Below are positions 6,644 to 64,000 of a DNA stretch of 64,000 nt, one piece after another. Made by a program: the position numbers and the translations under genes. This stretch comes from a virus (Duplodnaviria; Caudoviricetes), in IMG/VR virus record IMGVR_UViG_3300024259_001623; one strand, 5' to 3'. A model generated the notes under the pieces. That model had not been told where the DNA came from and made no database searches. It saw only the letters and a list, made by a program, of their open reading frames with translations. Position 1 is the stretch's first letter. Each line of letters opens with the position of its first letter.

Positions 6644-6892
6644 TGGGCGGGCTGGGAATCGAACCCCGCGACCTTCTTCCGAAAGCATTACGATATTGCC
6701 TTGTCTTACAGGGAATTAAACCCTGGTCTCCTGGCCTAATGCCAGGTATCTTCCATGCAATCTGATACCCTTGGTAAGTCGATCAAACTTTGGTAGAGTA
6801 GTGTTGCACAGTTAGCCACTCATTAGACGATCAGACGCAATAATCTCCTAGGACTACTTTCCGGATGCTGTTATGCCAAATAACTTCCGCCC
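6644..6892 (-). ncRNA. 249-nt tRNA-scaffolded RNA with a nested tRNA-like domain
   Basis: Acceptor GGGCGGA/CCCGCCC, D-like stem GTTAT/ATAAC and GGTTCGATT T-arm enclose a ~180-nt insert that contains a second cloverleaf. Confidence 0.65.
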
Positions 6893-44425: not shown

Positions 44426-46096
44426 CTATATTTTACCGAGAATAAAATCGCTAACCATTTGAGGCGTTGCAGTATCGAAACCTACAACGTTCAACGAGTT
44501 ACGATCTTCGTTGTCAGTGATGCTATAAGGATTAGCTAACATACCACAAGCAATCATCTTAGCATCGTTTCTTCTTTTCTTACTGTCCCGATACAACTTC
44601 AAAGACCGATCTACATGAGTCTCGCCAGCCCAAGTCTCCATATCAGAGAGAATAACAAAAGCATCAACATCTACATTCTTACTCTTTGCCCAATTGGTAG
44701 CGATAGCTGCATCGGTGCCACCAAAGTTGCTCATCTGGGCCTTCTTCATTGCAGTCTGAATCGAATCCTTGGCAGTAATCTTCAAGTCTACCAAATTATG
44801 AGCGAAGCCCATGATATGATAGTTAGGTTCGGTTCTGGCAAAGACCATAGCCATTGCAGCAGCAGCAACGCAAGGACTCATATTACGGATACCAGATACT
44901 TCACCGCCAGCCATAGAACCAGAAACATCAACCGCCAAAAGGATATTCTTACCAGTTGGCTCAACATTCTTGAAGGACAGATAAAAAGCATCGTCCAACG
45001 CATCAAGAATCTGAGGAACTGGCTCATAACCTAACGAAGTAGGATAACCCCAATACGAATGGGTAAACTGATTGCTATAGGCACACATCGCTGCTAATAC
45101 GCTCAAAGGATGAATTCTGGCCTTATGCAACACTTCCTCATTTCTCAAAGTCTCACAAACATACTTTGTAGACGAGGATAGCGGAGTCAAAACGCCTGCC
45201 TTTGTCATATTACGGATATTACGAATCATAGCAGTCATTGGCATACCATCCAGCAATGCCTTCCATACCTTCTTATCATAAAGAGTATTAGGTACGCTCT
45301 CACGAACCAAACCATACTTCTTAATCATAGAAACCATTTCCTTGCTATCATCTACAGTCTTAGCAGTCTCATGTGCCCAGATATATCTAGTGGCATCATT
45401 CTTCTCCAACTTCGCAAACTGGACCTTGGTGAATCCCTTTCTTCCCTTAACGATATACTTCAAAACGGTTTGCATATCCTTACTACCGGGGATCAAGTGG
45501 ATTTTACGCAGCAAATCTCTATGCGACCAAGACGCTTCGCCTTCTACCTTACGCTGAGGATACTTACAAGCCTGGAATGCTACGGAATTAGGAGTCTTAC
45601 TGGTATACCAACTACCAATAGCCTTACGCAAACCTCTACCCCATCCTCTCATTTGGTCTACATAAGTCACGAAACTGAACAAATATGTTCCGATACGACA
45701 GACCTTGTTTAAGTTATCCAAAGCGTACTTACGAATCTCGTCATTATCGCAAGAAGCTGCTAAAGCCATAACAAAGATAGCAGGATCATTCTTGGCTGCA
45801 CGACCTTCATTAGAAACTGCGATAGTTTCGTCAATAGCAGCCATTCCGCCTTCGGTAGTCTTAAACAGCTTAGTTACATTCTTGGCGTTTTCCTTAGCGA
45901 ACTTTTTCTTACCAACATAAAAAGTTCCGCCATCAGAACCAAGAATTAAGAACCTACGAAGATGCTCTAACCGATCAACAGAATAAACATACCCACCGGC
46001 GTTATTCTTGACTTGACGCTTGTTCGCTCTCTGAGTCTGAGGAACGTCTACGTTACGTGAAGCTAAACCACTATCCTTAACAATATTCTTAGCCAT
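44426..46096 (-). CDS. rsr: Ro60/Rsr TROVE-domain RNA-binding protein
   Basis: NNAGGYV, RRFLILGSDGGTFY, MPMTAMIRN, RIHP, vWA MIDAS LAVDVSGSM, GGTD, DAFVILSDMETW, VVGFD. Confidence 0.96.
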   Translation of the reverse strand: MAKNIVKDSGLASRNVDVPQTQRANKRQVKNNAGGYVYSVDRLEHLRRFLILGSDGGTFYVGKKKFAKENAKNVTKLFKTTEGGMAAIDETIAVSNEGRAAKNDPAIFVMALAASCDNDEIRKYALDNLNKVCRIGTYLFSFVTYVDQMRGWGRGLRKAIGSWYTSKTPNSVAFQACKYPQRKVEGEASWSHRDLLRKIHLIPGSKDMQTVLKYIVKGRKGFTKVQFAKLEKNDATRYIWAHETAKTVDDSKEMVSMIKKYGLVRESVPNTLYDKKVWKALLDGMPMTAMIRNIRNMTKAGVLTPLSSSTKYVCETLRNEEVLHKARIHPLSVLAAMCAYSNQFTHSYWGYPTSLGYEPVPQILDALDDAFYLSFKNVEPTGKNILLAVDVSGSMAGGEVSGIRNMSPCVAAAAMAMVFARTEPNYHIMGFAHNLVDLKITAKDSIQTAMKKAQMSNFGGTDAAIATNWAKSKNVDVDAFVILSDMETWAGETHVDRSLKLYRDSKKRRNDAKMIACGMLANPYSITDNEDRNSLNVVGFDTATPQMVSDFILGKI

Positions 46097-46141
46097 TTTT
46101 CATCTCCCTTTTATAGTTATATCCCAAAATTTTTATAAATT

Positions 46142-46270
46142 ACTAGGTAAGTTAGTAGCATGGTTATATGCCCCCGTTCTATCATTAAACTATATCGCCG
46201 CTATTGCGACGACACCAGGAATCAAACCTGATTTTGGGGTTTATGGATAACCCAATGCCTTCGACCCAGT
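46142..46270 (-). ncRNA. yrlA: Y RNA 1 (YrlA-type, permuted tRNA domain)
   Basis: 5' ACTGGGTCGAAGG / 3' CTTACCTAGT Ro stem enclosing a T-arm, a loop-closed acceptor and a D-arm. Confidence 0.85.
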
Positions 46271-46290
46271 TATGTTCTTCTATATAAAAT

Positions 46291-46423
46291 ACTAGGTAAG
46301 TTATTAGTATGGTTGATATTACTGACGCTCTGCCGTTGAGCTATATACCGGCTTTGCCGATATAGCAGGATTCGAACCTACAACCTTCAGTTCCGGTTGA
46401 TAAACCAATACATTCGACCCAGT
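46291..46423 (-). ncRNA. yrlA: Y RNA 2 (YrlA-type)
   Basis: Same termini; GTAGG-TTCGAAT-CCTGC, acceptor closed by GGC-AAA-GCC, TAGCTCAACGGCAGAGC D-arm. Confidence 0.88.
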
Positions 46424-46461
46424 TATTTTCTTCTTTTTTATCCCTTATATTTTTATAAAAT

Positions 46462-46589
46462 ACTAGGTAAGTTGTTGGAATGGTATAATGCTCTGCCAAT
46501 TGAGCTATGTCGCTACATTGTAACGACAATGGGAATCGAACCCATAACCTTCTCATTAAAAGTGATAAACCATATCCATTCGACCCAGT
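46462..46589 (-). ncRNA. yrlA: Y RNA 3 (YrlA-type)
   Basis: Same termini; ATGGG-TTCGATT-CCCAT, TGTCG/CGACA, TAGCTCAATTGGCAGAGC. Confidence 0.88.
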
Positions 46590-46715
46590 TATTTTCTTTT
46601 AAAGCAAAAAATAAGTTGCCTAACAAATTAATATTAAGCAACTTATCCTTTTTTAAGCACCCGACGCCCTCTTACACCAATACATTTCCGAACGAGTCGT
46701 CACAGTTTATAAAAA

Positions 46716-47282: not shown

Positions 47283-47379
47283 CGAAGACCGCTGGATTCG
47301 AACCAACAACCTCAAGGGCTAATCCTTAGTCCCAACAACCTTTTTTGCCCTTGCGCTCTGCCAATTGAGCTACATCTTC
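47283..47379 (-). ncRNA. tRNA-like RNA with an expanded anticodon loop
   Basis: Canonical D- and T-arms; 7-bp CAAGGGC/GCCCTTG stem closing a 27-nt loop. Confidence 0.65.
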
Positions 47380-47915: not shown

Positions 47916-48000
47916 TACTCCCTCCCGGGATCGAACCGGGACACCCGAAGGTACAGGTGCCTAAAACCTGTGCGTCTGCCATTTATTCCGCCAAGGGAGC
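47916..48000 (-). tRNA. tRNA-Leu(UAG)
   Basis: Loop TT TAG GC, long variable arm, A73. Confidence 0.93.
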
Positions 48001-48204: not shown

Positions 48205-48651
48205 TTATTTAAACTCTTTGGGAATATATTCTAATTTTAGCATTATTGCAACTGTATAACCACCCAAATGTCTCCATACAACATCTAGATAATCTTTAAA
48301 AGTTGGATAAAGATTTTCTTTTGGTGCTATTTTCTTATCTGTGCCTTCATCCGATATCTTCCCCCCGAATTGCAGAGCTACTTCATTAATGATAGAATGA
48401 TCTACCCACCAAATAAAATTCCCGCCGCCACCATGTCTCATTTCAAAATGTTTTTCGCCTTCTAGCCAGCAAATTCTACTCTCATTAATTTGTGGACATT
48501 TAATAGTCCAGACATGATCTGCAAAACCATCTTCTGAGTATTCTACCGTGAGAGTATTTTTAAACTTATCTTTAATAAGCCTATTAATTAGTTCAGTAAT
48601 TTGTTCTGGATCAATTTTCTTACGAGTTTTCACCCAAGCATGATTAGCCAT
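48205..48651 (-). CDS. hypothetical protein
   Basis: Coupled (TAATG) to the ligase C-fragment. Confidence 0.6.
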   Translation of the reverse strand: MANHAWVKTRKKIDPEQITELINRLIKDKFKNTLTVEYSEDGFADHVWTIKCPQINESRICWLEGEKHFEMRHGGGGNFIWWVDHSIINEVALQFGGKISDEGTDKKIAPKENLYPTFKDYLDVVWRHLGGYTVAIMLKLEYIPKEFK

Positions 48652-49262
48652 TATTCTTCTATCCCATTTTTTATAATCTTTTCATATCGCCAATGACAAC
48701 TTGTTTGTACATGATTGGCTCTTACATATTTTGCTAATGATCTCTGGAAGTCTCCATACGAAAAACTATCAACCAGTCTAACAACATATCCTTCACATTC
48801 ATCATTGTTATGTTCTTTTTCAAATAACTCTTTTATCTTGTCAACGTCCCAGATGCCTCTATACAGTTCAGGGACAACTGATACCCCTAAAACATCTGCC
48901 CATTCTACCATATCATCCCAACTCAAACATTCATTCTTATCATTCCATATACTAAACAGATAAAAATACGATTTTAGATTTTTATAGTGAATAGAATGTT
49001 TGGCAAATAGGTTCTCTCCACAGAATCTCCAACCATCTGGAATCTCATAAGATATTTTAGAATGAAGATTCTTTACCCAACCTCTGGATGGATGAGAAGC
49101 TCCGAAAATAGATCGAGCGTGTAAATAGTCTTTATACATAGAACAATTATGTACTAATATTCCATTGGCAAAAAAATTATTATTACCACTGACGGATATA
49201 TCATATAATTTTGATTTATTAGATATTTTCTTTATTTTTTTGATTTTTACTTTTTTCAACAT
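48651..49262 (-). CDS. split-intein C-half (39 aa) plus the C-terminal part of an RNA ligase
   Basis: LYDISVSGNNNFFANGILVHN|C intein block F/G end, then ligase motifs CGEN, FSIW, EGYVVR and KYVR. Confidence 0.92.
   Translation of the reverse strand: MLKKVKIKKIKKISNKSKLYDISVSGNNNFFANGILVHNCSMYKDYLHARSIFGASHPSRGWVKNLHSKISYEIPDGWRFCGENLFAKHSIHYKNLKSYFYLFSIWNDKNECLSWDDMVEWADVLGVSVVPELYRGIWDVDKIKELFEKEHNNDECEGYVVRLVDSFSYGDFQRSLAKYVRANHVQTSCHWRYEKIIKNGIEE
49146..49262 (-). mobile_element. IntC of a naturally split intein
   Basis: Ends in HN with Cys+1; 9 Lys versus 1 Asp. Confidence 0.9.
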
Positions 49263-50271
49263 TTTTTAACCTATCTAATAATAATTCCATTAACTCACAA
49301 TCATCAATGGCTTTCATCTCTTTTTCCCATATATAAATAACAAAATAATTATATTTTTCTGCTATTGCATTTTTTAGAGAATCTTTTTTCCAAACCTCTC
49401 CTGCTTTTATGATACCATTAGGAAACTTTAAAATATCATCTTTTTTATAAATTTCAGGATTAGCGTGCCAATAGTCACCATTAATTTCTAAAATTATTCT
49501 TGTTTTATTTATTTTGAAATCGAAACTTTTTCTATTTATCCAAAATTGTCTAGTAAAACCGATATTAAGTTCTTCTAAAACATTAGAAATTCTTGTTTCA
49601 AGCTTACTAGAGAAATTATGAACAAAGTTTTTACATCTTTTCTGTATTATAATATTCTTTTGCTCATCTGATAAGTTTTTCCAATATTTTTTATATCCAT
49701 CGTGTAACTTATCCATCCTAATCTTTTTATCTTCTGGCGAAATTATTTGCCAGTGATCATTCATTTTTCCATATCTATTAGGAAGCGATTTTTTACCGTA
49801 ATTCTCTAACATATAGTCATGCAACCATGAATAATATTCTTCAGACTTCCATATATTATCTACTCCATAATTTTTCAAAAAAGTTTGTTTCTTTTTATCT
49901 TGTATATCTTTTGATTTAGAAACATTATCAACACCATATTTCTTTTCGCATGTATTCTTATATTTTTGTCTAGTCCTTATCGTAGACGTTGCCTCTCTTT
50001 TGGTCCTTTTATCAATGCCGAAATATTTTAATAAAAATTGACTTTGTACAAAATTAAGTCCATATTCTTGTAAAAAATCTGTTAAACTCCAAAACTCATT
50101 AATGTATTTATTTTTAAAATCTTCTTTATCAAATATATTTTTCTTATCAAAACATATTTGTTTAAATCTTAATTCCTGTTTATCTAAATTGATATTGTTT
50201 TTTTTAGCACAAAAATAAATATGACGAGAATTTCTTTTGTTAATTTGTTCTTTACATATAAAGCATTCCAT
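49219..50271 (-). mobile_element. Vsr/DUF559-like (EDxHD-type) homing endonuclease
   Basis: YGVDN repeats, S.LE, FDF, LEINGDYWH and WE motifs; sits between the intein halves. Confidence 0.85.
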
Positions 50272-50328
50272 AGAGTTATCTCCTTTTTATTACTATTCAA
50301 CAATAAAAATGGAGATTCCTCTATTTTA

Positions 50329-51147
50329 TTAGTCGTTTATAAGAAATTCATCATTTTCTGATAAATCTTTGACGCATCTATAACAATTTAAATTAGGCAA
50401 CCAAACTCTATGTTCTCCCGTTATTTTTATCATTCTGCCATCTTCTAACTCAATTTCATACCATTCTTTTTTACTATTCTCATTGATAGAGAATCCATCA
50501 ATTTTTTTGTATTCAATCTGACCAGTTTCAGCATCCATAGATAAAACTTTACAATCTATTTTTTGCTCACAAACGTCTTGTATGCTCTTTATTCCCAAAT
50601 CCGTATTTAACTCAGTTTCTTGGTCAAGACAGTTCTCACCGTCCATTTTAACGGTCACAACGACCTCTCTACCTTCAAAGTGTTCTGTAGACTTTAATTG
50701 TCGATCATCATTAGTTAATCCAGGACTCCAAGGCAAATGTAAAGTTCTAGGATACTTAATATATTTAGAAAATAAATATAATACTTTCCCTTGCTTTAAA
50801 ATCTTTTGTACTGAATGATCAAAGAATAATTCTCCTTTTAATCTTTCTCCGCTTGGCAACATAATATTTCCCCACTTATCATATTCATATTCGTCATATA
50901 AATGAGAAGGAATAATTACGTTTTCGATGCCAGCAGCCATTCTTAAATCTTCACAAGAAAGATGAGTTTGTTCAGCCGCAATATGATGATATCCGCACAA
51001 AGAGACACCGTTATCTAAATGATAACCGCCATCATCCCATAAACGTCTTTCTATGATATGATGAGCATCTTGCGCATCTTTTCCGCATATAACGCATTTG
51101 TGGTTATCTCTTTCAAAAACAGATTGTCTAAATTCATCTCTAGTCAT
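50329..51147 (-). CDS. HNH domain plus RNA ligase N-part plus split-intein N-half (100 aa)
   Basis: FERDNHKCVICG..DAHHI HNH domain; KYPRTLHLPWS and KMDGEN motif I; then CLDQET...TGEHRVW intein blocks A/B. Confidence 0.92.
   Translation of the reverse strand: MTRDEFRQSVFERDNHKCVICGKDAQDAHHIIERRLWDDGGYHLDNGVSLCGYHHIAAEQTHLSCEDLRMAAGIENVIIPSHLYDEYEYDKWGNIMLPSGERLKGELFFDHSVQKILKQGKVLYLFSKYIKYPRTLHLPWSPGLTNDDRQLKSTEHFEGREVVVTVKMDGENCLDQETELNTDLGIKSIQDVCEQKIDCKVLSMDAETGQIEYKKIDGFSINENSKKEWYEIELEDGRMIKITGEHRVWLPNLNCYRCVKDLSENDEFLIND
50332..50631 (-). mobile_element. IntN of a naturally split intein
   Basis: Begins with Cys1; TxxH block B; 23 acidic versus 12 basic residues. Confidence 0.9.
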
Positions 51148-51571: not shown

Positions 51572-51994
51572 TTATCTCCCTGATCTCATGTTTCTATCAT
51601 CGCTACGAATATCATCTTCGGTTGATGGTTGTCCATCTGCTCCATAAGATATAATCAACGGTGCATTATTCTTGGAATATCTAAAATTATTTCCAAAAGA
51701 ATCTATGAAACGTTCATCTTCTATAGTTCCCTCATTGTCAGCAGTTCCCTGCATTAACGATGCTATTTCAGGAATAGTTAATACATCTTTTAAATATCTA
51801 GGATATTCTTGATGATATCTATGATAGGTTAGAACAGCCTTACTCAAAACTTTCAGTCTAGCACTTGTCTCATCTTCTTGCGCTCTTACTTGAACATAAC
51901 TTCCTACACTTACAATCAAAGAAATCAATATACCCATAATACTAATAACAACCAACATCTCTATAATAGTAAAGCCTTTTCGTTTCTTACTCAT
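51572..51994 (-). CDS. type IV pilin / GspG-like pseudopilin
   Basis: KRKG|FTIIEMLVVISIMGIL class III signal peptide; D.FGN.F.Y and ISYGADG C-terminal motifs. Confidence 0.88.
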   Translation of the reverse strand: MSKKRKGFTIIEMLVVISIMGILISLIVSVGSYVQVRAQEDETSARLKVLSKAVLTYHRYHQEYPRYLKDVLTIPEIASLMQGTADNEGTIEDERFIDSFGNNFRYSKNNAPLIISYGADGQPSTEDDIRSDDRNMRSGR

Positions 51995-55547: not shown

Positions 55548-57035
55548 CTACTCAAACAAAAATCGGTCCTTATTTGCGACGATGTATTTGTTAAGATCAG
55601 GATACTTCTGAACAAACTCCAACTTAACCAAAGGCTTTTGCAATTCCTCCATACGAGCAAGACAATGGTTGATCAACCCCATAAAGTTCTTATAGTTATT
55701 ATCGATAGACTTTATGTGACTCTTTCCGGCAATCTTGTCAATAGTCTCAAGAACCTTTATAAGTTCTTGATAAGTCATCAATTGAGCTATATGAGGCAGC
55801 AAAGATGCATAATAACTCTTTCTTGAATGGGTGTCACTTAATCCCATTTCCTGTATCACATTACAATGCGGAATGATTTTATTAGTATTCGTTACCGTAT
55901 AATAATACCGTTTGAAATTCGTTTTCTTCACTCCCTTTGTAATGGCAGAATTAACCCAATTCCTTTCAAATGATCCCTTCGTATGTCTAGTGATCTTAGT
56001 GCATAATTCCTTATTCGCTCCTGCCTTTACGATTTCTTCCAGAACCTCTTTCAGCTTTGGTTCCTTTTCGTAATTCCACAAAGCAGTATTCCTAGCCATA
56101 TCATTCTCAGCGATGAGTTTAGCGATCTTCTCATCTGGCATCAATGGCAAGAAGAATTCGCACAAACCTTTCTTATCTACAATAGCAGCTAACGTCTGAG
56201 AATAGTTATCCTCATCTGCCAAGAAAGCCATGCCTTCTGCTTTATTTTTTGTAGTAAAAATACCTTTTAGTTTATTCACAGCAGGGGTATTCTTCATTTT
56301 ACTTACGAAACTGTTGATATTCGCCCCAGCAGGCAATACATCATTCAAGTCTCCGCTGAGGAAGTAATAATCTAAGGTGTATTCCAAACGTCTAGGAGAA
56401 ACCATATTCTTGACTTCTTCCGTTTGTTCCTTCCACCAAGTAATAGCTTGAGAAGCAACATCATTACCGTACTTCTGAGAGAAGAACTTTCTATTTGGCT
56501 CATAAGGGATTTCTACTTGAATTTGAAATCTATCAACTTGAGCAGGGTCAGCTTTTTCCACATCATAAGTATTTACATCATCTTCATCTGGGTTAATAGC
56601 AACCCAAACGATTTTCAGATTCTTCAAAACCTTACCATTAATGGACTTAAACTGAATCAGTTCCATAACGGCATTACGAATCTTCTTATGAGAACGATTG
56701 TACTCATCAATGAAAATCGCTTCTACTTCGTCTTGAGCAATTGCTTTAGGACGAATGAATTTAATGTATGTTTCTCCGGTGTCAGGATCAGTATGTTTTT
56801 CAGGAATACCAATGAAATCAACCCAAGGGTCTAAAGTAGCTCCACTAAAGTACATATAATTAAGTTTTGCTTTCTTCCAAGCATCCAAAATTATAGACGT
56901 TTTGCCAACTCCATGACGCCCAACGAACATAACATTCAGCCCGCTATCGATCCACAGGCTCATTTTGTGGTCGTTGATGAGATGTTTCCTTCTACGAGGC
57001 ATTTCCGACTCCTTAAAAATATTCTTTTCTCTCAA
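55548..57035 (-). CDS. MoxR/dynein-like AAA+ ATPase
   Basis: GRHGVGKT Walker A, IFIDEYNR Walker B, AINP, DRF and VSPR. Confidence 0.88.
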   Translation of the reverse strand: MREKNIFKESEMPRRRKHLINDHKMSLWIDSGLNVMFVGRHGVGKTSIILDAWKKAKLNYMYFSGATLDPWVDFIGIPEKHTDPDTGETYIKFIRPKAIAQDEVEAIFIDEYNRSHKKIRNAVMELIQFKSINGKVLKNLKIVWVAINPDEDDVNTYDVEKADPAQVDRFQIQVEIPYEPNRKFFSQKYGNDVASQAITWWKEQTEEVKNMVSPRRLEYTLDYYFLSGDLNDVLPAGANINSFVSKMKNTPAVNKLKGIFTTKNKAEGMAFLADEDNYSQTLAAIVDKKGLCEFFLPLMPDEKIAKLIAENDMARNTALWNYEKEPKLKEVLEEIVKAGANKELCTKITRHTKGSFERNWVNSAITKGVKKTNFKRYYYTVTNTNKIIPHCNVIQEMGLSDTHSRKSYYASLLPHIAQLMTYQELIKVLETIDKIAGKSHIKSIDNNYKNFMGLINHCLARMEELQKPLVKLEFVQKYPDLNKYIVANKDRFLFE

Positions 57036-57345
57036 TAGATATAAATAGCACCAGCGCTTTCAGGGATAAAAAAAGAGCCAGCCTTCATAACAAAAGACTG
57101 ACTCTCGTTTATCCATGACAATTTTAAAGAGTTCGCCTTCTCTAGCCTCGTGGGAATGACTCCCACATCAGGACCACCAGGTAGTGTTTAAAGAGGCTAC
57201 CAACTCTTCGATACAACGATCCATACTTATCTTAAAACATACGCAACTAATTATCGTAGAAGGGTCCAGTAATGGTTGACGCCATTACTTTCCCTGTCGT
57301 CAAACAAGCGAGCTATTTGCCCGCCCTTCTCCGAGAATAAGTTCT

Positions 57346-57648
57346 TTATCTTACCATTTTTGCCTTTTTGTAATCCTCTTCGATTAACTCTCTGATGATT
57401 GCATTTGCATCTTTAGACGACATTGGACGCATAGCATTAGTCTTATCATTCATCCAAAAGTTTTCGCTATCCCGATACAGCATACCAGTCTTGCCAGTTC
57501 TCTCTCCGATGATAAAACCTTTCTTAAACCTAACCAAAGAGTATCTTGGCGCCTTCTTTACCGGCTTATTATGAGGATTCTTAACATCATCGTCATCATC
57601 ATAATCATCGTCATAATCTCGGCTTCGTCTGCCTCTGTCCTGTCTCAT
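57346..57648 (-). CDS. hypothetical protein
   Basis: Promoter TTGCAA-N16-TATAAT at 57685-57712 upstream. Confidence 0.6.
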   Translation of the reverse strand: MRQDRGRRSRDYDDDYDDDDDVKNPHNKPVKKAPRYSLVRFKKGFIIGERTGKTGMLYRDSENFWMNDKTNAMRPMSSKDANAIIRELIEEDYKKAKMVR

Positions 57649-57726
57649 TTTTTTTCCTTTACTAAAAAATATTTACGACACTATATTATACTTGGATGTT
57701 ATTATTTTGCAATTAAAATATTTTAA

Positions 57727-57800
57727 TAGCGATGGTGAGGATCGAACTCACAGCCTCTCGCTTATGAAACGAGCGCTCAGACCTATTGAGCTTCACCGCT
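57727..57800 (-). tRNA. tRNA-Met(CAU)
   Basis: Loop TT CAT AA; A at position 8 is atypical. Confidence 0.85.
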
Positions 57801-58058
57801 TTCTATCATATTTATTAGATCGTCACGATCTAATTCGACGGCCAATTCTTTAGTCCCTCTAATCGAGCTAATATTATCAAAACTATCCCCAGGAGGCAGT
57901 AAGAATCTAGTACCTTTATCGGCTCTTATAACGTTTGCTTTGCCAGTTGGGCCATAAATAGTTATGCTATCACGAATAACATAAACCTTTGTGCCTGTTA
58001 TTTTTGTAACCCTTTTGCCTACTGGTATATCTTTAGCTGGCATTATTGCTTTCAACAT
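57783..58058 (-). CDS. hypothetical protein
   Basis: GGAG RBS; its stop codon overlaps the tRNA 5' end. Confidence 0.55.
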   Translation of the reverse strand: MLKAIMPAKDIPVGKRVTKITGTKVYVIRDSITIYGPTGKANVIRADKGTRFLLPPGDSFDNISSIRGTKELAVELDRDDLINMIESGEAQ

Positions 58059-58077
58059 TATACATCTCCTTCTTAAA

Positions 58078-58176
58078 ATCAGCGAAAAGGATTCGAACCA
58101 ATAACTGCCCTCTACCAGTAAGATAGCATGTTGCTTACTAAGCGGGGAGCCATGTTGCCAATTACACCATCGCTGA
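58078..58176 (-). ncRNA. tRNA-like RNA with an inserted hairpin in the anticodon arm
   Basis: Acceptor TCAGCGA/TCGCTGA, D-arm, weak T-stem; AGTAAG/CTTACT insert. Confidence 0.55.
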
Positions 58177-58652
58177 TATATTATCAGACTGGATTTCTAT
58201 ACATAATCATTTGGAATATTTGAATTCAGTATATTTGCTTCTTTTATCTTCGCTTCTCGTATTTTCTCAAGCATTTTTGCTCTAATTAAACGAGAAGAAT
58301 GCATTTTACCACTAAGCATGTTCACTCTGCAACCAGTATCTTCGTGATGAAGGGTTTCCGAAAAACCAGGAATAATTGCTTCAATTAAGTCAGTGTTAAG
58401 TGTGATATATTTTAGCACTACGAAAGCCATTTTATTTATCTCCTAAATGTTTTCTAATCTGGTCAATAGTATCTGTAGCAGATTCACTTTTGCCTTCCAA
58501 AAAAGCAAGTTCCAAATTATCAGAAATCATTCGTTTTGCAGAATAATAATTTGCATCGCCTCTGAATAGTCCCATTGCAGACAAAATTTCAGACGCCTTA
58601 TTATCAAAATATTTTTTGCGTATTGCATCCATTATTTCTTTTCTCCTTCAAA

Positions 58653-58769
58653 TAAATAGGACGGGATTCGAACCCGCAACCTTCTGTTTCAGGTTGGATC
58701 AGCCTGTGAGGAATAGAACCTGCATAGGTCAGCCGTCGCTTGTATTTAACCAGTTAATACTACCTATTC
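58653..58769 (-). ncRNA. 117-nt expanded tRNA-like RNA
   Basis: GAATAGG/CCTATTT acceptor, GTATT/AATAC D-stem, GCGGG-TTCGAAT-CCCGT; ~60-nt insert. Confidence 0.65.
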
Positions 58770-58784
58770 ACCAATCAATCCAAA

Positions 58785-58939
58785 TACCAAGAGCAGGATT
58801 CGAACCTACACGCCTTTAGTTCCTATATACGCCTATGATATATAGCGAACTCTGTAAAATCAAATAGACTTCAAATATTCAACCTTACTTCAGCAACGGG
58901 TATTATCCCGTCGTGTCTAACCATTTCCACCATCTTGGG
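58785..58939 (-). ncRNA. 155-nt Leu-type tRNA-like RNA with a giant variable region
   Basis: GGTGGAAATGGTTAGACAC D-arm, ACGGG/CCCGT with a 6-nt loop, T-arm, A73. Confidence 0.65.
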
Positions 58940-58948
58940 ATATAACAA

Positions 58949-59109
58949 TGCAGAGAGTTGGACTCGAACCAACAAACCTAAGTAGAATAAAATCTAAGTT
59001 CATTCTTAACTTGCATACTAGACATCAATGTCCTTGTCATTGCACCCAGTTATGCTCTAGGTCATAGAACCATAAGCTCTAATTGCGTTACCAATTACGC
59101 TACCTCCGC
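58949..59109 (-). ncRNA. 161-nt expanded tRNA-like RNA
   Basis: GCGGAGG/TCTCTGC acceptor, GCGT/ACGC D-stem, GTTGG-TTCGAGT-CCAAC; multi-hairpin insert; 5' end overlaps the sigma-factor stop codon. Confidence 0.65.
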
Positions 59110-59916
59110 TTTAAATCCTTCCGCATACCTCGCAATATCAGCATTAATTCCACTCCTATCAATACTAAACAATCTATGAACTTCGCGTAAAGCCGCTTTA
59201 TATCTGTAATGCGCTCCACTCTCTGTCAGTCCAAGTTCCTTGGCTATTTGAATTTTTCCCTCTCCAAAAACAGCCGATTTAATAAGAATATCCCTATGTT
59301 CATTACTAAGCTTACTAATCAACGAATATACCAAATCTTTATCTTCAAGAGCCTGATCTGGACTTCTGTGAGGATCAAGTATCGGTGTATCAAAGTCCGG
59401 CGTTATCGTTATAGATTGTTTTGTAAACCATTTAACAGCACTATCTATGCAAGATATATTTTTATCTGACAAATTAGCCTCTTCTTTAATACGTTTTGGA
59501 GACTCATCTTGCTTACCATGCAAGTCAAATTGGGCCTTTCTATATGCAGCCATGTTACGACGAACAGAACGAGGAATACCACTCCATTCAGATTGACAAT
59601 CAACTATCATACCACGAACCCTTCTATACGCATAAAGAACAAAAGAATCAATCCCTTTGTCTTGCTGCTCCGGGTCAAACTTTCGTAACGCTTTCACTAA
59701 ACCTATAGAAGCTTCCGCTATCAAATCATCAAGGTCTACCTGTATATTAAAATACTTTTTAGTAGTAGAAGATAATTTAATAATCCAAGCCCAATAATTT
59801 TTTACCAAAATATTTTCATCATGGCTATTATGATCGGCTTTATATCTCAGCCATACTTTTTCTAACTTATTTTTATCTAAGCTTTTAGCTATGTTTAATC
59901 TTTTTTCTTTCTGCAT
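59095..59916 (-). CDS. sigma-70 family (FliA/sigma28-like) sigma factor
   Basis: DDLIAEASIGLVKALRKFDP, YAYRRVRGMIVD and a region 4 HTH IAKELGLTES. Confidence 0.9.
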   Translation of the reverse strand: MQKEKRLNIAKSLDKNKLEKVWLRYKADHNSHDENILVKNYWAWIIKLSSTTKKYFNIQVDLDDLIAEASIGLVKALRKFDPEQQDKGIDSFVLYAYRRVRGMIVDCQSEWSGIPRSVRRNMAAYRKAQFDLHGKQDESPKRIKEEANLSDKNISCIDSAVKWFTKQSITITPDFDTPILDPHRSPDQALEDKDLVYSLISKLSNEHRDILIKSAVFGEGKIQIAKELGLTESGAHYRYKAALREVHRLFSIDRSGINADIARYAEGFKAEVA

Positions 59917-59946
59917 CGTTTTTCCAATCCATTATATATCCACAAG

Positions 59947-60026
59947 GACCGTTAGTAGGAATTGAACCTACGAATATTCCCAGGCTTAACGCCATAGGAA
60001 TGCGTGTACCTCTCGCCTCAACGATC
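59947..60026 (-). ncRNA. tRNA-like RNA with a lengthened anticodon arm
   Basis: 8-bp acceptor (G-1:C73 style), T-arm GTAGG-TTCAATT-CCTAC, TTCCT/GGGAA plus inner GGC/GCC stem. Confidence 0.55.
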
Positions 60027-60041
60027 ATTTACAACAATAAG

Positions 60042-60203
60042 GGCCAGCGACCGGATTCGAACCGGCAAGCCTAGTATATTTTTCCAAAAACGATTACTTT
60101 TTCGAAGCATCCTTCGCAAATTCTGTATAACTTTTTATACAGTAATAATGCTTTCGGCCACGGGACCGTCTTCCCGCTGCGTTTCCAATGCGCCACACTG
60201 ACC
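60042..60203 (-). ncRNA. 162-nt expanded tRNA-like RNA
   Basis: GGTCAGTG/CGCTGGCC acceptor, GCGGG/CCCGT with an 8-nt loop, ~90-nt variable region with hairpins, T-arm. Confidence 0.65.
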
Positions 60204-60214
60204 ATATTAAACTA

Positions 60215-60487
60215 TTATACATCTCCATTCTTATCAATAGCCTTATCTTCATAAGGAGCAACAATCCTACGAGAGAACTCTGCTTTGCAACAATCAAACG
60301 TTCCTATAATGTCTTGTAACGTATGATATCTTACTCCAAGTCTCTCAGCAAGCTTCTTAGCTAATCTATACATAATATAATTATGATGACCTTTAATCGC
60401 CTCATCGGTTTCACAAGCGAGTATATCTACTAATTCATCTATGTACTCATCGTATTGTTCTCTCAATTCTTTTTTAATGTATGGCAT
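60215..60487 (-). CDS. conserved phage protein (DUF6899-like)
   Basis: MPYIK, G.HNY...L, K.EF.RR.VAPYED..I.KNGDV. Confidence 0.65.
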   Translation of the reverse strand: MPYIKKELREQYDEYIDELVDILACETDEAIKGHHNYIMYRLAKKLAERLGVRYHTLQDIIGTFDCCKAEFSRRIVAPYEDKAIDKNGDV

Positions 60488-60490
60488 ATC

Positions 60491-60796
60491 TTACTCCAAT
60501 GGGAATTCATCTTCCCAGTATTTTCTATCTTCTTTATCCCAAGGGATATGAAACCAACAAATTTCAAAACAATGAGGACAGCGAAACACTCCCGCCAAAT
60601 AAGTTCCTTTAAAAGAACATTTCCAGGGGGCTTCACAAGAACCAACAAAATCTTGTTCTTCTATATCTGAACAAAAATCACAAATATCTTCGTCACAATT
60701 AGGGCAAACTGAACCTTTTTCTACAGAATAATTGTGTTCGCCTAACAACGCTGAATTAACTCTTAAATGAGCATTTTTATACATGTCTGTTGGCAT
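60491..60796 (-). CDS. Cys-rich hypothetical protein
   Basis: CPNC and CPHC motifs. Confidence 0.55.
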   Translation of the reverse strand: MPTDMYKNAHLRVNSALLGEHNYSVEKGSVCPNCDEDICDFCSDIEEQDFVGSCEAPWKCSFKGTYLAGVFRCPHCFEICWFHIPWDKEDRKYWEDEFPLE

Positions 60797-61045
60797 TTTC
60801 TTCTTCTAATTTTACAATTATTCAGTCATACGACAATGCATAACGAAATCACCATCTAACGTCTTTTCTAAATAGCCACCTTCTCGCCTAACATCGGTTA
60901 ATGGGGCAGGTTCTCCATTCCCATTAATTTCAAACCAAAAATCTGCGTCTTGTTCGCCTTGCCCCTCATACCACTCCGCAAAAACTTTTGCTTGATTTTC
61001 GGTAATACCATCAATAATTAGCTTTGCCACTTCATTCTCCTTTAA

Positions 61046-61120
61046 TACGTCATATCAGATTCGAACTGATACCTCAACCTTGGAAGGGTCGTGTGCTAAA
61101 ACCATTAACACCAATGACGC
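61046..61120 (-). tRNA. tRNA-Gly(UCC)
   Basis: Loop CT TCC AA. Confidence 0.92.
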
Positions 61121-61271
61121 TTATGCAAATTATGTTTTTGAACTACCAGTCAGGGACATAATTTATAATCGTATAAAATAAAAATTCCACAATCATATTT
61201 TTTTTTAAAAAAAGGTTTATTTTGTTTTATGTCGAACTATAAATTATACCATAACATAGAGGAATACGGTC

Positions 61272-62039
61272 ATGCGAAAAAGAACTAGTAAAATATGGCA
61301 AATTTCCAAAACTGATCTTCAACTATTAGTTAATAAATCAAACAGTATCGTAGAAATATTAAAAACATTAGGTCTAAAACCTTATAGTGGCAATCATAGA
61401 ACATTACATAAAAGAATTCAAGAAGATAAAATATGTTTAAATCAGCTAGAAACAAATAGACATAATTGGAGAATTCATTTTATGCAATCTATGGGGTCAA
61501 AATACTCCATCAATAACAAAGATATATTTTGTAAAAATAGTAAATATTCTAACAACAGTCAAATAAAGAAAAAAATCATTAATGAATACGGGATTTTAGA
61601 ACAATGTTCTATCTGTCAAACAGGTAATATTTGGAATAATGAACCATTATCTTTACAATTAGATCATATTAATGGCATTAATAATGATCATAGATTGGAA
61701 AATTTAAGATTATTATGCCCTAACTGTCATAGCCAAACTGAAACTTTTTCTGGTAAAAGAAAAAAAACACAACAAAAACAATGTAAAAAATGTTCTCAGC
61801 CGATATCTGATAAAAAATTCGCCAAATTCTGTGAATCTTGCAGAACAAAAGAAAAACAAAAAAATTATATAAAACGATCTAAATTTAATCCTAATAAAGA
61901 AGAACTCACAAATGTACTGAAATCTAATAATTGGAATTACAGTGCTACTGGTAGACATTATAATGTCTCTGATAATTCAATTAGGAAAAAATGTAAAAAA
62001 CTAAACATAACAAAAGAAGGCAGGAACTCTGCCAATTGA
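61272..62039 (+). mobile_element. HNH homing endonuclease (plus strand, against the local gene orientation)
   Basis: CSIC..LQLDHINGINNDHRLENLRLLCPNCHSQT; GAGG RBS. Confidence 0.92.
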
Positions 62040-62050
62040 GTTACACCCGC
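62016..62050 (-). pseudogene. 5' half of a tRNA-Gly broken in the anticodon
   Basis: GCGGGTG TA ACTC AATTGGCA GAGT T CCTGC CT TC, then unrelated sequence. Confidence 0.75.
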
Positions 62051-62057
62051 TTATTAT

Positions 62058-62357
62058 TTAAGTAAAATGACTAAAAGCCCATACTTTTACATCAGCTTCC
62101 TCAATACCAAATTCACTGAAAATTAATGCTTGTAACACAGCAAATTCTTGTTCTGGAACATCAGTACAATTCGTTATTTCCAATCCATATCTGCTTTTGT
62201 CTATAACTTCACCAATGAACATATACTTTCCATTCATGCCATCAGAAATAACTGTCAAACCATTTTTGGATTCAATCGCATCCTTATACGAATTGTCCAG
62301 ATAATCTTCAACATCTTCAAATTCAAACTGGTCAAATGGCAATTTGACAGCCAACAT
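62058..62357 (-). CDS. hypothetical acidic protein
   Basis: 99-aa ORF. Confidence 0.55.
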   Translation of the reverse strand: MLAVKLPFDQFEFEDVEDYLDNSYKDAIESKNGLTVISDGMNGKYMFIGEVIDKSRYGLEITNCTDVPEQEFAVLQALIFSEFGIEEADVKVWAFSHFT

Positions 62358-62763
62358 AATCTATTCTATCAACACCCATGTTCTTTATCCTAATAAATGA
62401 TAAACCGGAAGGATACCAACATTGTCTCCATCCATGTCTACCTTTGTACCTTCTTTATCGTAAATATATTGAGGAATATCATTTATACAATTATAATCCT
62501 CATCTAAAAGAATATCATTATAACGAATACGATAAGTCAATTCAATAACATGCCTTCTTACCAATAAGCCTAAAACCCAAACTAAACGAATAACAGAAAA
62601 TTCTGTCTTTCGGTCAATAACATCAGTAGGGACAATTACTGTTTCATCAGGATAACTATTTCTCCATGACTGAAGAAGCCGCAATTCTTGCTCATATTCT
62701 GGAAAATCATTTTTATATTGTAAGAAGTTCATCTTCATACTTTATACAAAATCACATTCACTC

Positions 62764-63240
62764 TCAGGGACAAAAACTGATATCATTTTCTTTTAAATAC
62801 TTTTTGATATTCTCTATATCGTCGGACTGTTCAGCGAGTTGATGTTTAAACATGGCTAAAAAACATTTAGGCATATTCTCTACAATCTCGCCTTTAATTG
62901 TCATAACCCTTATGAACTCAGTAGGTTCTATTAGCCACATTTCACCAGTTATATCTTGATCATTTACTCCATGAGGCTCTGTTCCAATAACCTTATACTT
63001 TGTTCTATAAACATAAACATTAATGTATTTAGGAGCTTCAGTTATTTTCCAAGAACCAGTTATAGCCCATCTAGGAACTGCTCCAAAACATCCCCAAAGT
63101 TCAGGGGCAACACATATTCTAGGAACATCAGGTTCATCAGCGCTTCTGTTAGAGTCAGAAATCTCGTCTTGACCTTTTGGCGTTAGAAGCTTTTCTTTGC
63201 CCCATCGCTTCTTCGTAATATGATAATAATACTTCTTCAT
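62764..63240 (-). CDS. possible ADP-ribosyltransferase-like protein
   Basis: YYHIT first strand, PRICVA..LWGC, YVY and a distal Glu (TGEMW). Confidence 0.45.
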   Translation of the reverse strand: MKKYYYHITKKRWGKEKLLTPKGQDEISDSNRSADEPDVPRICVAPELWGCFGAVPRWAITGSWKITEAPKYINVYVYRTKYKVIGTEPHGVNDQDITGEMWLIEPTEFIRVMTIKGEIVENMPKCFLAMFKHQLAEQSDDIENIKKYLKENDISFCP

Positions 63241-63262
63241 TGTTTTAATCTTTCATCGTTAA

Positions 63263-63334
63263 TGGAGCTAGAGGGACTCGAACCCTCAAAAACACCGTGC
63301 AAAGGTGCTGGTTTCCCAATTAGCCTATAGCCCC
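63263..63334 (-). tRNA. tRNA-Ala(UGC)
   Basis: G3:U70 and A73; loop TT TGC AC. Confidence 0.95.
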
Positions 63335-63479
63335 GAATTATATTATACTAAGAACAAACGCAATTACTGAAATAAAACAAAACACAATTTGCCATTTTTT
63401 CGATACTTTTGGCATCCACGGCATTTTCTTACGTAACCAATCTTCTGTTTGTTGAGCATAATCTACTTTCGTGTTCATA

Positions 63480-63923
63480 TTATTTATTTTTTAAAGCCTT
63501 ATATATGGATACATTATTGGGATCAGCTTTATCCCAATCAATTTTATCATGATTTAATGCTCTTTTGGTTCCTCTGCATGATGGGCATATTACATACACC
63601 CCTCTGTCATCCCAACCATAATCCTTATTCTTAACTTGTCCGAAACTATCACAACGATTGCATTTTTCAAAAGTTAGAGTTTCGATATATTCGCATTGCT
63701 TACAAAACTTAACCCATGCAGCATCTAATGAAATATCGCTATTGTGAGCTATAATATAAGATAAAACATAAAACGATGTTTGACAAAAATCATCTTCAAC
63801 AATATTCTCTGGTATATTTAACTTATTATCAGATAAAACTTTAATAAACAGACCAGTTAACTCTCTGCCAGAGTAAGTTCTTCTCAACCATACCATATAT
63901 GCATCTAGATTATTAATATCCAT
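63480..63923 (-). CDS. protein with a DnaJ-type zinc finger
   Basis: CNRCDSFG ... CPSCRGT. Confidence 0.55.
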   Translation of the reverse strand: MDINNLDAYMVWLRRTYSGRELTGLFIKVLSDNKLNIPENIVEDDFCQTSFYVLSYIIAHNSDISLDAAWVKFCKQCEYIETLTFEKCNRCDSFGQVKNKDYGWDDRGVYVICPSCRGTKRALNHDKIDWDKADPNNVSIYKALKNK

Positions 63924-64000
63924 TATTATTTATTTCCATTTATGATCATCATCGTAATGCATATTAAATATATTTTCAAAAACATCTTTTTTGAGAGGAT

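Follow-up and report, generated by a model that had tools for sequence, protein, structure and literature searches.

Oversized tRNA-shaped RNA genes without a usable anticodon next to a sigma factor gene of a huge phage

Stable RNAs resembling tRNAs are annotated in the genomes of the phages T5 and T4. T5 (accession no.: NC_005859) encodes RNA1 (rna1, T5s03) and RNA2 (rna2, T5s06), both annotated as 'tRNA-like stable RNA with unknown functions', and T4 (AF158101) encodes RNA C (species 1) and RNA D (species 2), stable RNAs of 119-139 nt located in the tRNA cluster; at its end, RNA C has a T arm together with an acceptor-like stem. The function of the T4 and T5 RNAs is annotated as unknown and standard tRNA finders overlook the class. 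Irregular tRNAs and allo-tRNAs (Mukai et al. 2017, PMC5389517) are encoded in polycistrons and have extra stems; some of them are charged but are not used in translation. Further tRNA mimics with added domains are tmRNA and the YrlA Y RNA, of which the latter is circularly permuted and carries a Ro60-binding stem. Here, we describe three elements, E1, E2 and E3, of a huge phage and compare them with these systems.

The window analysed, a stretch of 64,000 nt of the IMG/VR record IMGVR_UViG_3300024259_001623 (Duplodnaviria; Caudoviricetes), is part of a huge uncultured phage of 434 kb; the sigma factor adjoining E1 was found on contigs of up to 434,625 bases. ORFs in the window lie mostly on the minus strand, 13 tRNAs were found by ARAGORN and the ordinary tRNAs of the phage are mostly without an encoded CCA. 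The gene content includes three RNA ligase genes, Ro60, Y RNAs, PARP, NADAR and a second sigma factor. An RNA ligase gene (48651-51147, minus strand) is fragmented and contains intein-like segments and, between its parts, an ORF of 350 aa, which suggests nested mobile elements. Directly before the Ro60/TROVE gene (44426-46096), three tandem repeats (46100-46600, minus strand) have the layout of YrlA, i.e. a terminal stem of the Ro60-binding type, a T arm, a closed acceptor hairpin and a D arm; one repeat (46520-46593) was miscalled as tRNA-Lys by ARAGORN. An apparently normal tRNA-Leu(UAG) (47916-48000, minus strand) was missed by ARAGORN with default settings and by Rfam at the gathering threshold. 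Further, the minus strand encodes about 12 scattered paralogous ORFs of 135-203 aa with a common cysteine-containing N-terminal start (30706-53558) and a prepilin-type N-methylation/T2SS-G protein (51572-51994). An HNH endonuclease gene (61272-62039) lies on the opposite (plus) strand, adjoins a tRNA-Gly and is among the few plus-strand genes in the public annotation.

A sequence-only reading of this DNA had described three back-to-back oversized tRNA-like RNAs of 161, 155 and 117 nt with spacers of 9 and 15 nt. Indeed, E1 (58949-59109), E2 (58785-58939) and E3 (58653-58769) have these lengths and spacers, and all three are encoded on the minus strand. The spacing had also been equated with that of the tRNA-Glu operon; with spacers of 8 and 8 nt in that operon, the first gap is similar and the second is not. 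The stretch around E1-E3 is base-identical in eight other assemblies and, therefore, an assembly error is excluded. The acceptor stem is paired at 7/7 positions in E1 and in E3, where it is A/U-rich, and at 6/7 positions in E2, which has a C1xU72 mismatch that had been overlooked before. A D loop containing GG, a T loop on a 5-bp stem and a terminal A73 are present in each element, and CCA is encoded in none. The 7-bp acceptor, the D arm and the 5-bp T arm of a canonical tRNA are intact in all three, apart from the 1x72 mismatch of E2, and a usable anticodon is present in none. A canonical anticodon arm (5-bp stem, 7-nt loop, U33, in register after position 26) is precluded in E2 by a 6-nt loop and in E1 by a displacement of 2 nt, and E3 has no such arm at all. 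None of the elements was detected by ARAGORN or at Rfam gathering thresholds, and at a relaxed Rfam threshold only E1 was recovered as tRNA (36.2 bits). When the T arm was kept and the upstream sequence was shuffled, a matching acceptor and D arm arose by chance in 0.5-1.5% of the trials. E3 fell outside the strict acceptor and D-arm rule because of its 5-bp D stem and a U at position 14. Folding z-scores against shuffles were -2.6 for E1 and E2 and only -1.3 for E3; E1 and E2 thus fold more stably than shuffled sequences, and E3 does not. In sum, E1-E3 are genuine oversized tRNA-shaped RNA genes that are unable to read codons.

E1 and E2 have a common layout: the tRNA body is of class II, a short hairpin takes the place of the anticodon arm and the variable stem leads into two long hairpins. 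The 7-bp acceptor of E1 contains G3.U70, which together with A73 is the alanine signal (PMC9976931), and its D stem has 4 bp. The anticodon-position hairpin of E1 (59065-59081) allows a 7-nt loop around UAU to be drawn, but its register is off by 2 nt; it is followed by the expanded variable domain (58975-59063) with a 7-bp closing stem and hairpins of 17 and 8 bp; the mean probabilities of seven E1 helices are 0.85-0.99. In E2, the 16-nt hairpin at the anticodon position (58896-58911) has 5 bp and a 6-nt loop, and a 77-nt insert (58815-58891) with two 13-bp hairpins sits in the loop of a leucine-type variable arm. The leucine-type determinants that had been read from the sequence of E2, namely A73, the D loop, the long variable region and also the 6-nt loop, are all present. 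A73, A14, A15:U48, the leucine D loop and C2-G71 give E2 a leucine identity set of the E. coli type, its variable stem is of class II, and with a model built from E2 canonical tRNA-Leu genes ranked next (46-62 bits). E3 is less clear: the structure of its middle 63 nt is weakly defined and the variable region ends class-I-like with 5 nt.

The trio is not isolated, since further elements with histidine- and glutamine-like acceptors flank it on the same strand. Upstream of the sigma gene are E0a (60042-60202), with 161 nt, a short hairpin and an expanded variable domain as in E2, and G-1 and C73, and E0b (59946-60026), 81 nt in length, whose body is histidine-like (G-1:C73) and whose hairpin at the anticodon position is elongated. 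On the other side lie a canonical tRNA-Met(CAU) (57727-57800) and a glutamine-like body of 99 nt (58078-58176) that has no anticodon and whose T stem is mismatched. The shells around the sigma gene thus differ in acceptor identity (Ala, Leu, His and Gln-like). Unusual elements were also seen elsewhere. A 97-nt tRNA-like element (47283-47379, minus strand; Rfam tRNA, 43 bits) has an enlarged anticodon arm, and a tRNA was restored by no single excision. An element of about 249 nt with tRNA-like ends (6644-6892, minus strand) directly follows a tRNA-Lys; its insert had no match among the loci collected in this analysis. Three further oversized tRNA-shaped elements are located just past the right end of the window (L008, 4288-4985), one with a 5-bp arm and 6-nt loop closely resembling that of the E2 homolog described below.

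Lak megaphages encode oversized intron tRNAs (Devoto et al. 2019, PMC6784885), and the elements described here are like them in their large size (~150-185 nt in Lak), in their location in huge phages and, in the case of E2, in a strongly conserved insert. E1-E3 could then be tRNA genes with Lak-type introns, which are spliced and ligated by the phage RNA ligases, and RNA ligases are encoded in the window. Therefore, every single excision was enumerated and it was asked whether a canonical anticodon arm results. Four of four intron-type controls, oversized tRNA-Leu genes from other viral contigs, were recovered. All four carry structured inserts in the loop of the anticodon arm. Three of them (L024:1617-1769, L051:1697-1845 and L055:2880-3024) have a CAA solution and contain an inner T-loop hairpin as in Lak introns; for the fourth (L053:792-920), the solution is UAA and the insert follows position 37. 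Single excision did not yield a canonical tRNA from E2, the E2 homolog, E3 or four neighbours. E1 gave one solution with a UAG loop, but the cut lies right after position 26, the stem is a weak A/U stem and a solution of this type was reached by ~2% of shuffles, which is near the chance rate with eight elements tested. Unlike the Lak inserts, which are located in the loop of an anticodon arm that is itself intact and whose removal restores the tRNA, the inserts of E2 and E3 cannot be excised to this effect. Splicing of E1-E3 is unlikely, and we hold the complete scheme of Lak-type introns joined by phage ligases to be the most improbable of the explanations considered. Oversized leucine-type shells are widespread in viruses: 44 viral loci matched a generic pattern and comprised 15 distinct clean oversized shells, 11 of which are not spliceable. 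In a tRNA array of a 248-kb phage, two such shells of 152 and 139 nt are encoded back to back (L043:1767-2065, minus strand), the first with C1xU72 and A73 as in E2.

A search of the protein collection with the sigma factor gave one close relative, L016, with a sigma factor that is 56% identical. In L016, E2 alone follows the sigma gene (L016:1415-1568); E1, E3, E0a and E0b are absent, and the 99-nt element has a 70-nt counterpart (L016:1792-1861). E2 and its homolog are 88% identical overall, and the 77-nt insert is identical at 73/77 positions (95%). As a neutral baseline, four-fold codon sites of five neighbouring genes were compared, of which 100/182 (55%) are identical; the identity of the insert is well above this (binomial P 6e-15) and similar to that of the canonical tRNA-Met, with 70/74 identical positions. 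The homolog keeps 47/48 pairs of E2, with one compensatory change in the acceptor and two one-sided changes, and the only broken pair is at the base of the 6-nt loop; the remaining differences are in loops or neutral to pairing. Covariation was not significant (263/500 shuffles), with two sequences only. The anticodon-position arm stays at 16 nt in both phages, but the loop sequence is changed and U33 is lost; the 1x72 mismatch is kept. The claim that E2 does not decode is borne out by the unusable 6-nt loop and its lack of conservation. An insert conserved to about the same degree as tRNA-Met next to a variable loop at the anticodon position fits a functional RNA without decoding, and E2 has probably been kept by selection as an RNA that has a leucine-type shell but does not decode. 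Alternatively, the high identity could result from a recent transfer between the two phages.

Apart from L016, homologs were scarce. Neither the sigma factor nor the AAA ATPase had a match in viral contigs, the 91-aa ORF found only itself, and the next relative of the AAA protein (L064, 49%) is not syntenic and has ordinary tRNAs only. DNA patterns specific for E1 and E2 gave no relevant match in viral, metagenome and genome collections (the single metagenome match was an ordinary bacterial tRNA-Leu), and BLAST against cultured phages returned short generic pieces only. The inserts had neither antisense nor paralogous matches within the window or among the collected loci, and no homology to other RNAs was detected. 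For E1 and E3, no homolog was found in viral, metagenome, genome or cultured-phage searches.

These gaps speak for a second explanation, according to which E2 alone is functional, while E1, E3 and a number of neighbouring elements derive from tRNAs and are now neutral or decaying; their shells would be left over as RNase P marks of the polycistron or would be recent pseudogenes. It is in line with the lack of E1, E3, E0a and E0b in L016 and of E1 and E3 homologs elsewhere, with the poorly defined middle of E3 and with the mismatched T stem of the 99-nt neighbour. Against it stand the helices of E1, which are all intact, its low z-score and the layout it shares with E2; moreover, decay would not yield long perfect hairpins. 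We consider it unlikely.

The sigma-70-family gene next to the trio (59095-59916, minus strand) encodes a protein of 273 aa with Pfam domains Sigma70 r2 and r4_2. Its last four codons and the stop codon are inside E1, so that the end of the ORF and positions 1-15 of E1 overlap by 15 nt (59095-59109), as had been noticed before. The notion that the last sigma codons encode the 5' acceptor strand and the D arm of E1 is correct for the acceptor strand, but of the D arm only the 5' strand of the stem is included. From this overlap it had been proposed that RNase P would truncate the sigma mRNA and couple the two; processing of the first RNA would make the mRNA nonstop and production of the RNA would switch sigma off. 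A cut at 59109/59110 would indeed remove the stop codon. Besides, the overlap is found in both phages with two different partner RNAs, with 15 nt for E1 and 38 nt in L016, where E2 supplies the stop, and in each case the first RNA starts a few bases after the last conserved residue of sigma. However, such an overlap is common. A census of 273 canonical phage tRNAs, with a few near-duplicate loci among them and with ORFs called mechanically, gave 50 that have an upstream ORF ending nearby, and 27 of these 50 contain its stop codon. The tRNA-Met of the same gene run does so as well, in both phages (in the window, the upstream 91-aa ORF has its stop codon within the first 18 nt of this tRNA), and the curated T5 record has the same overlap at tRNA-Gln, -Ser, -Asn and -Met. 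Of the frames that run into a tRNA, 32% encounter a stop codon in the first 15 nt and 57% in the first 39 nt. Since stop triplets abound at the 5' ends of tRNAs and canonical tRNAs share the overlap, the arrangement is ordinary. The sigma tails of the two phages are unrelated in sequence and differ in length, as expected after a single ancestral loss of the sigma stop, which would have had little cost and explains the overlap in both genomes. A programmed frameshift at the end of sigma was ruled out because there is no in-frame slippery heptamer. Thus, the overlap reflects a packing that is usual in phage tRNA regions and not a special switch; loss of the stop codon upon cleavage is mechanically possible, but a dedicated coupling is highly improbable. 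Taken alone, the overlap contributes little to the significance of the locus.

With slightly better than even confidence, we favour E1-E3 as non-decoding tRNA-shaped small RNA genes of the huge phage that are processed like pre-tRNAs and serve as mimics or scaffolds. In a scan for promoters and terminators, the T arms were the only signal between sigma and E3, which suggests that the region, including sigma and the genes on either side, would be transcribed as one message. Each shell would be released by host RNase P and 3' trimming, and CCA would be added, as the ordinary tRNAs of the same phage, mostly lacking an encoded CCA, require as well. The tRNA shell could then protect the RNA and present the acceptor end and elbow, as in an engineered tRNA scaffold; in E. 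coli, a tRNA shell is sufficient to make a foreign insert stable (PMC3753655). Without an anticodon, the RNAs would neither miscode nor offer a standard site to anticodon nucleases. The overlap with sigma would be a by-product of tight packing. The varied acceptor identities and the richness in RNA repair genes suggest mimics directed at host tRNA-binding proteins. A more specific role is put forward tentatively and is, on its own, less likely than not: mimics that occupy host proteins which bind at the acceptor end or elbow, such as tRNA-targeting defence enzymes, with the two-hairpin domain of E2 as a binding or structural module. Toxins acting on the acceptor end exist (CapRel, PMC13728456), and the RNA ligases, Ro60 and Y RNAs in the window are compatible with pressure on tRNA (PMC7824862); a link to a defence system was not found. 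A pure decoy would leave the conservation of the E2 insert unexplained, and this conservation suggests an added binding or structural role.

That the leucine-type RNA could be charged without decoding, as the sequence-only reading had it, is plausible from its identity elements, although the C1xY72 mismatch could hinder charging. For the LeuRS of E. coli, anticodon and variable arm are both dispensable (PMC9976931), and irregular tRNAs that are encoded in polycistrons, charged and not used in translation are known (PMC5389517). On this precedent and with the identity elements present, E2 (Leu) and E1 (Ala) could be aminoacylated and act outside the ribosome as amino acid donors or regulators. 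The 1x72 mismatch of E2 is conserved, however, its large insert may clash with the synthetase, and no transferase that uses aminoacyl-tRNA is among the window genes examined, which makes this role very unlikely. A broader version, in which E2, with E1 and E0a, forms an aminoacylated chassis that is excluded from the ribosome and carries, in its variable arm, a conserved two-hairpin effector domain, and in which the panel of identities would be an anti-defence or regulatory system, possibly tied to turnover of the sigma mRNA, is also quite unlikely. As a test case, E2 combines a leucine identity set and an unusable anticodon with an insert whose conservation is close to that of a real tRNA. Natural tRNA scaffolds are, in addition, of practical interest.

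Several known RNAs were considered as relatives of E1-E3 and rejected. E1 shares the G3.U70 and A73 alanine signal with tmRNA, but its D stem is paired, there is no tag frame and ARAGORN made no tmRNA call. Allo-tRNAs require an 8/4 or 9/3 acceptor branch; E1-E3 have 7/5 and are much larger. The added features of YrlA are absent from E1-E3, whose arms are in normal order, and there was no Rfam YrlA match within 57000-64000; the 3' end of E3 matched a YrlA-like RNA before a Ro60-type gene of phage ET08, but only a variable-loop and T-arm motif is shared. A literature search, with the older T4 and T5 papers outside its scope, returned no paper on tRNA mimics with an expanded variable arm.

The closest described systems are the stable RNAs of T5 and T4. 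Like RNA1 and RNA2 of T5, which are 125-144 nt long, E1-E3 are encoded in a phage tRNA region and have acceptor, D and T arms but no anticodon. T5 RNA1 even shares the leucine-type D loop of E2; its score on the E2 model is 34 bits, below ordinary tRNA-Leu genes. Unlike in E1 and E2, where the variable arm is expanded, the insert of T5 RNA1 extends the anticodon arm and the variable arm is normal. E2 was not accepted as a homolog of T5 RNA1: its insert is in the variable arm, a BLAST comparison of the inserts with the T5 tRNA region gave no match, and the model score reflects the shell only. Also unlike E1-E3, T4 RNA C has no recognisable D arm and T4 RNA D no T arm, and neither matches the E2 model. 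Nevertheless, T5 RNA1, T5 RNA2 and T4 RNA C form a loose class with the ends and the elbow of a tRNA, a large structured insert between them, no anticodon and a location in a phage tRNA region, and E1-E3 have these features. As judged from sequence comparison, E1-E3 appear to belong to this known kind of phage RNA and to be distinguished by the insert site, a two-hairpin junction in the variable arm with the short hairpin kept, and by the density of such elements around one gene.
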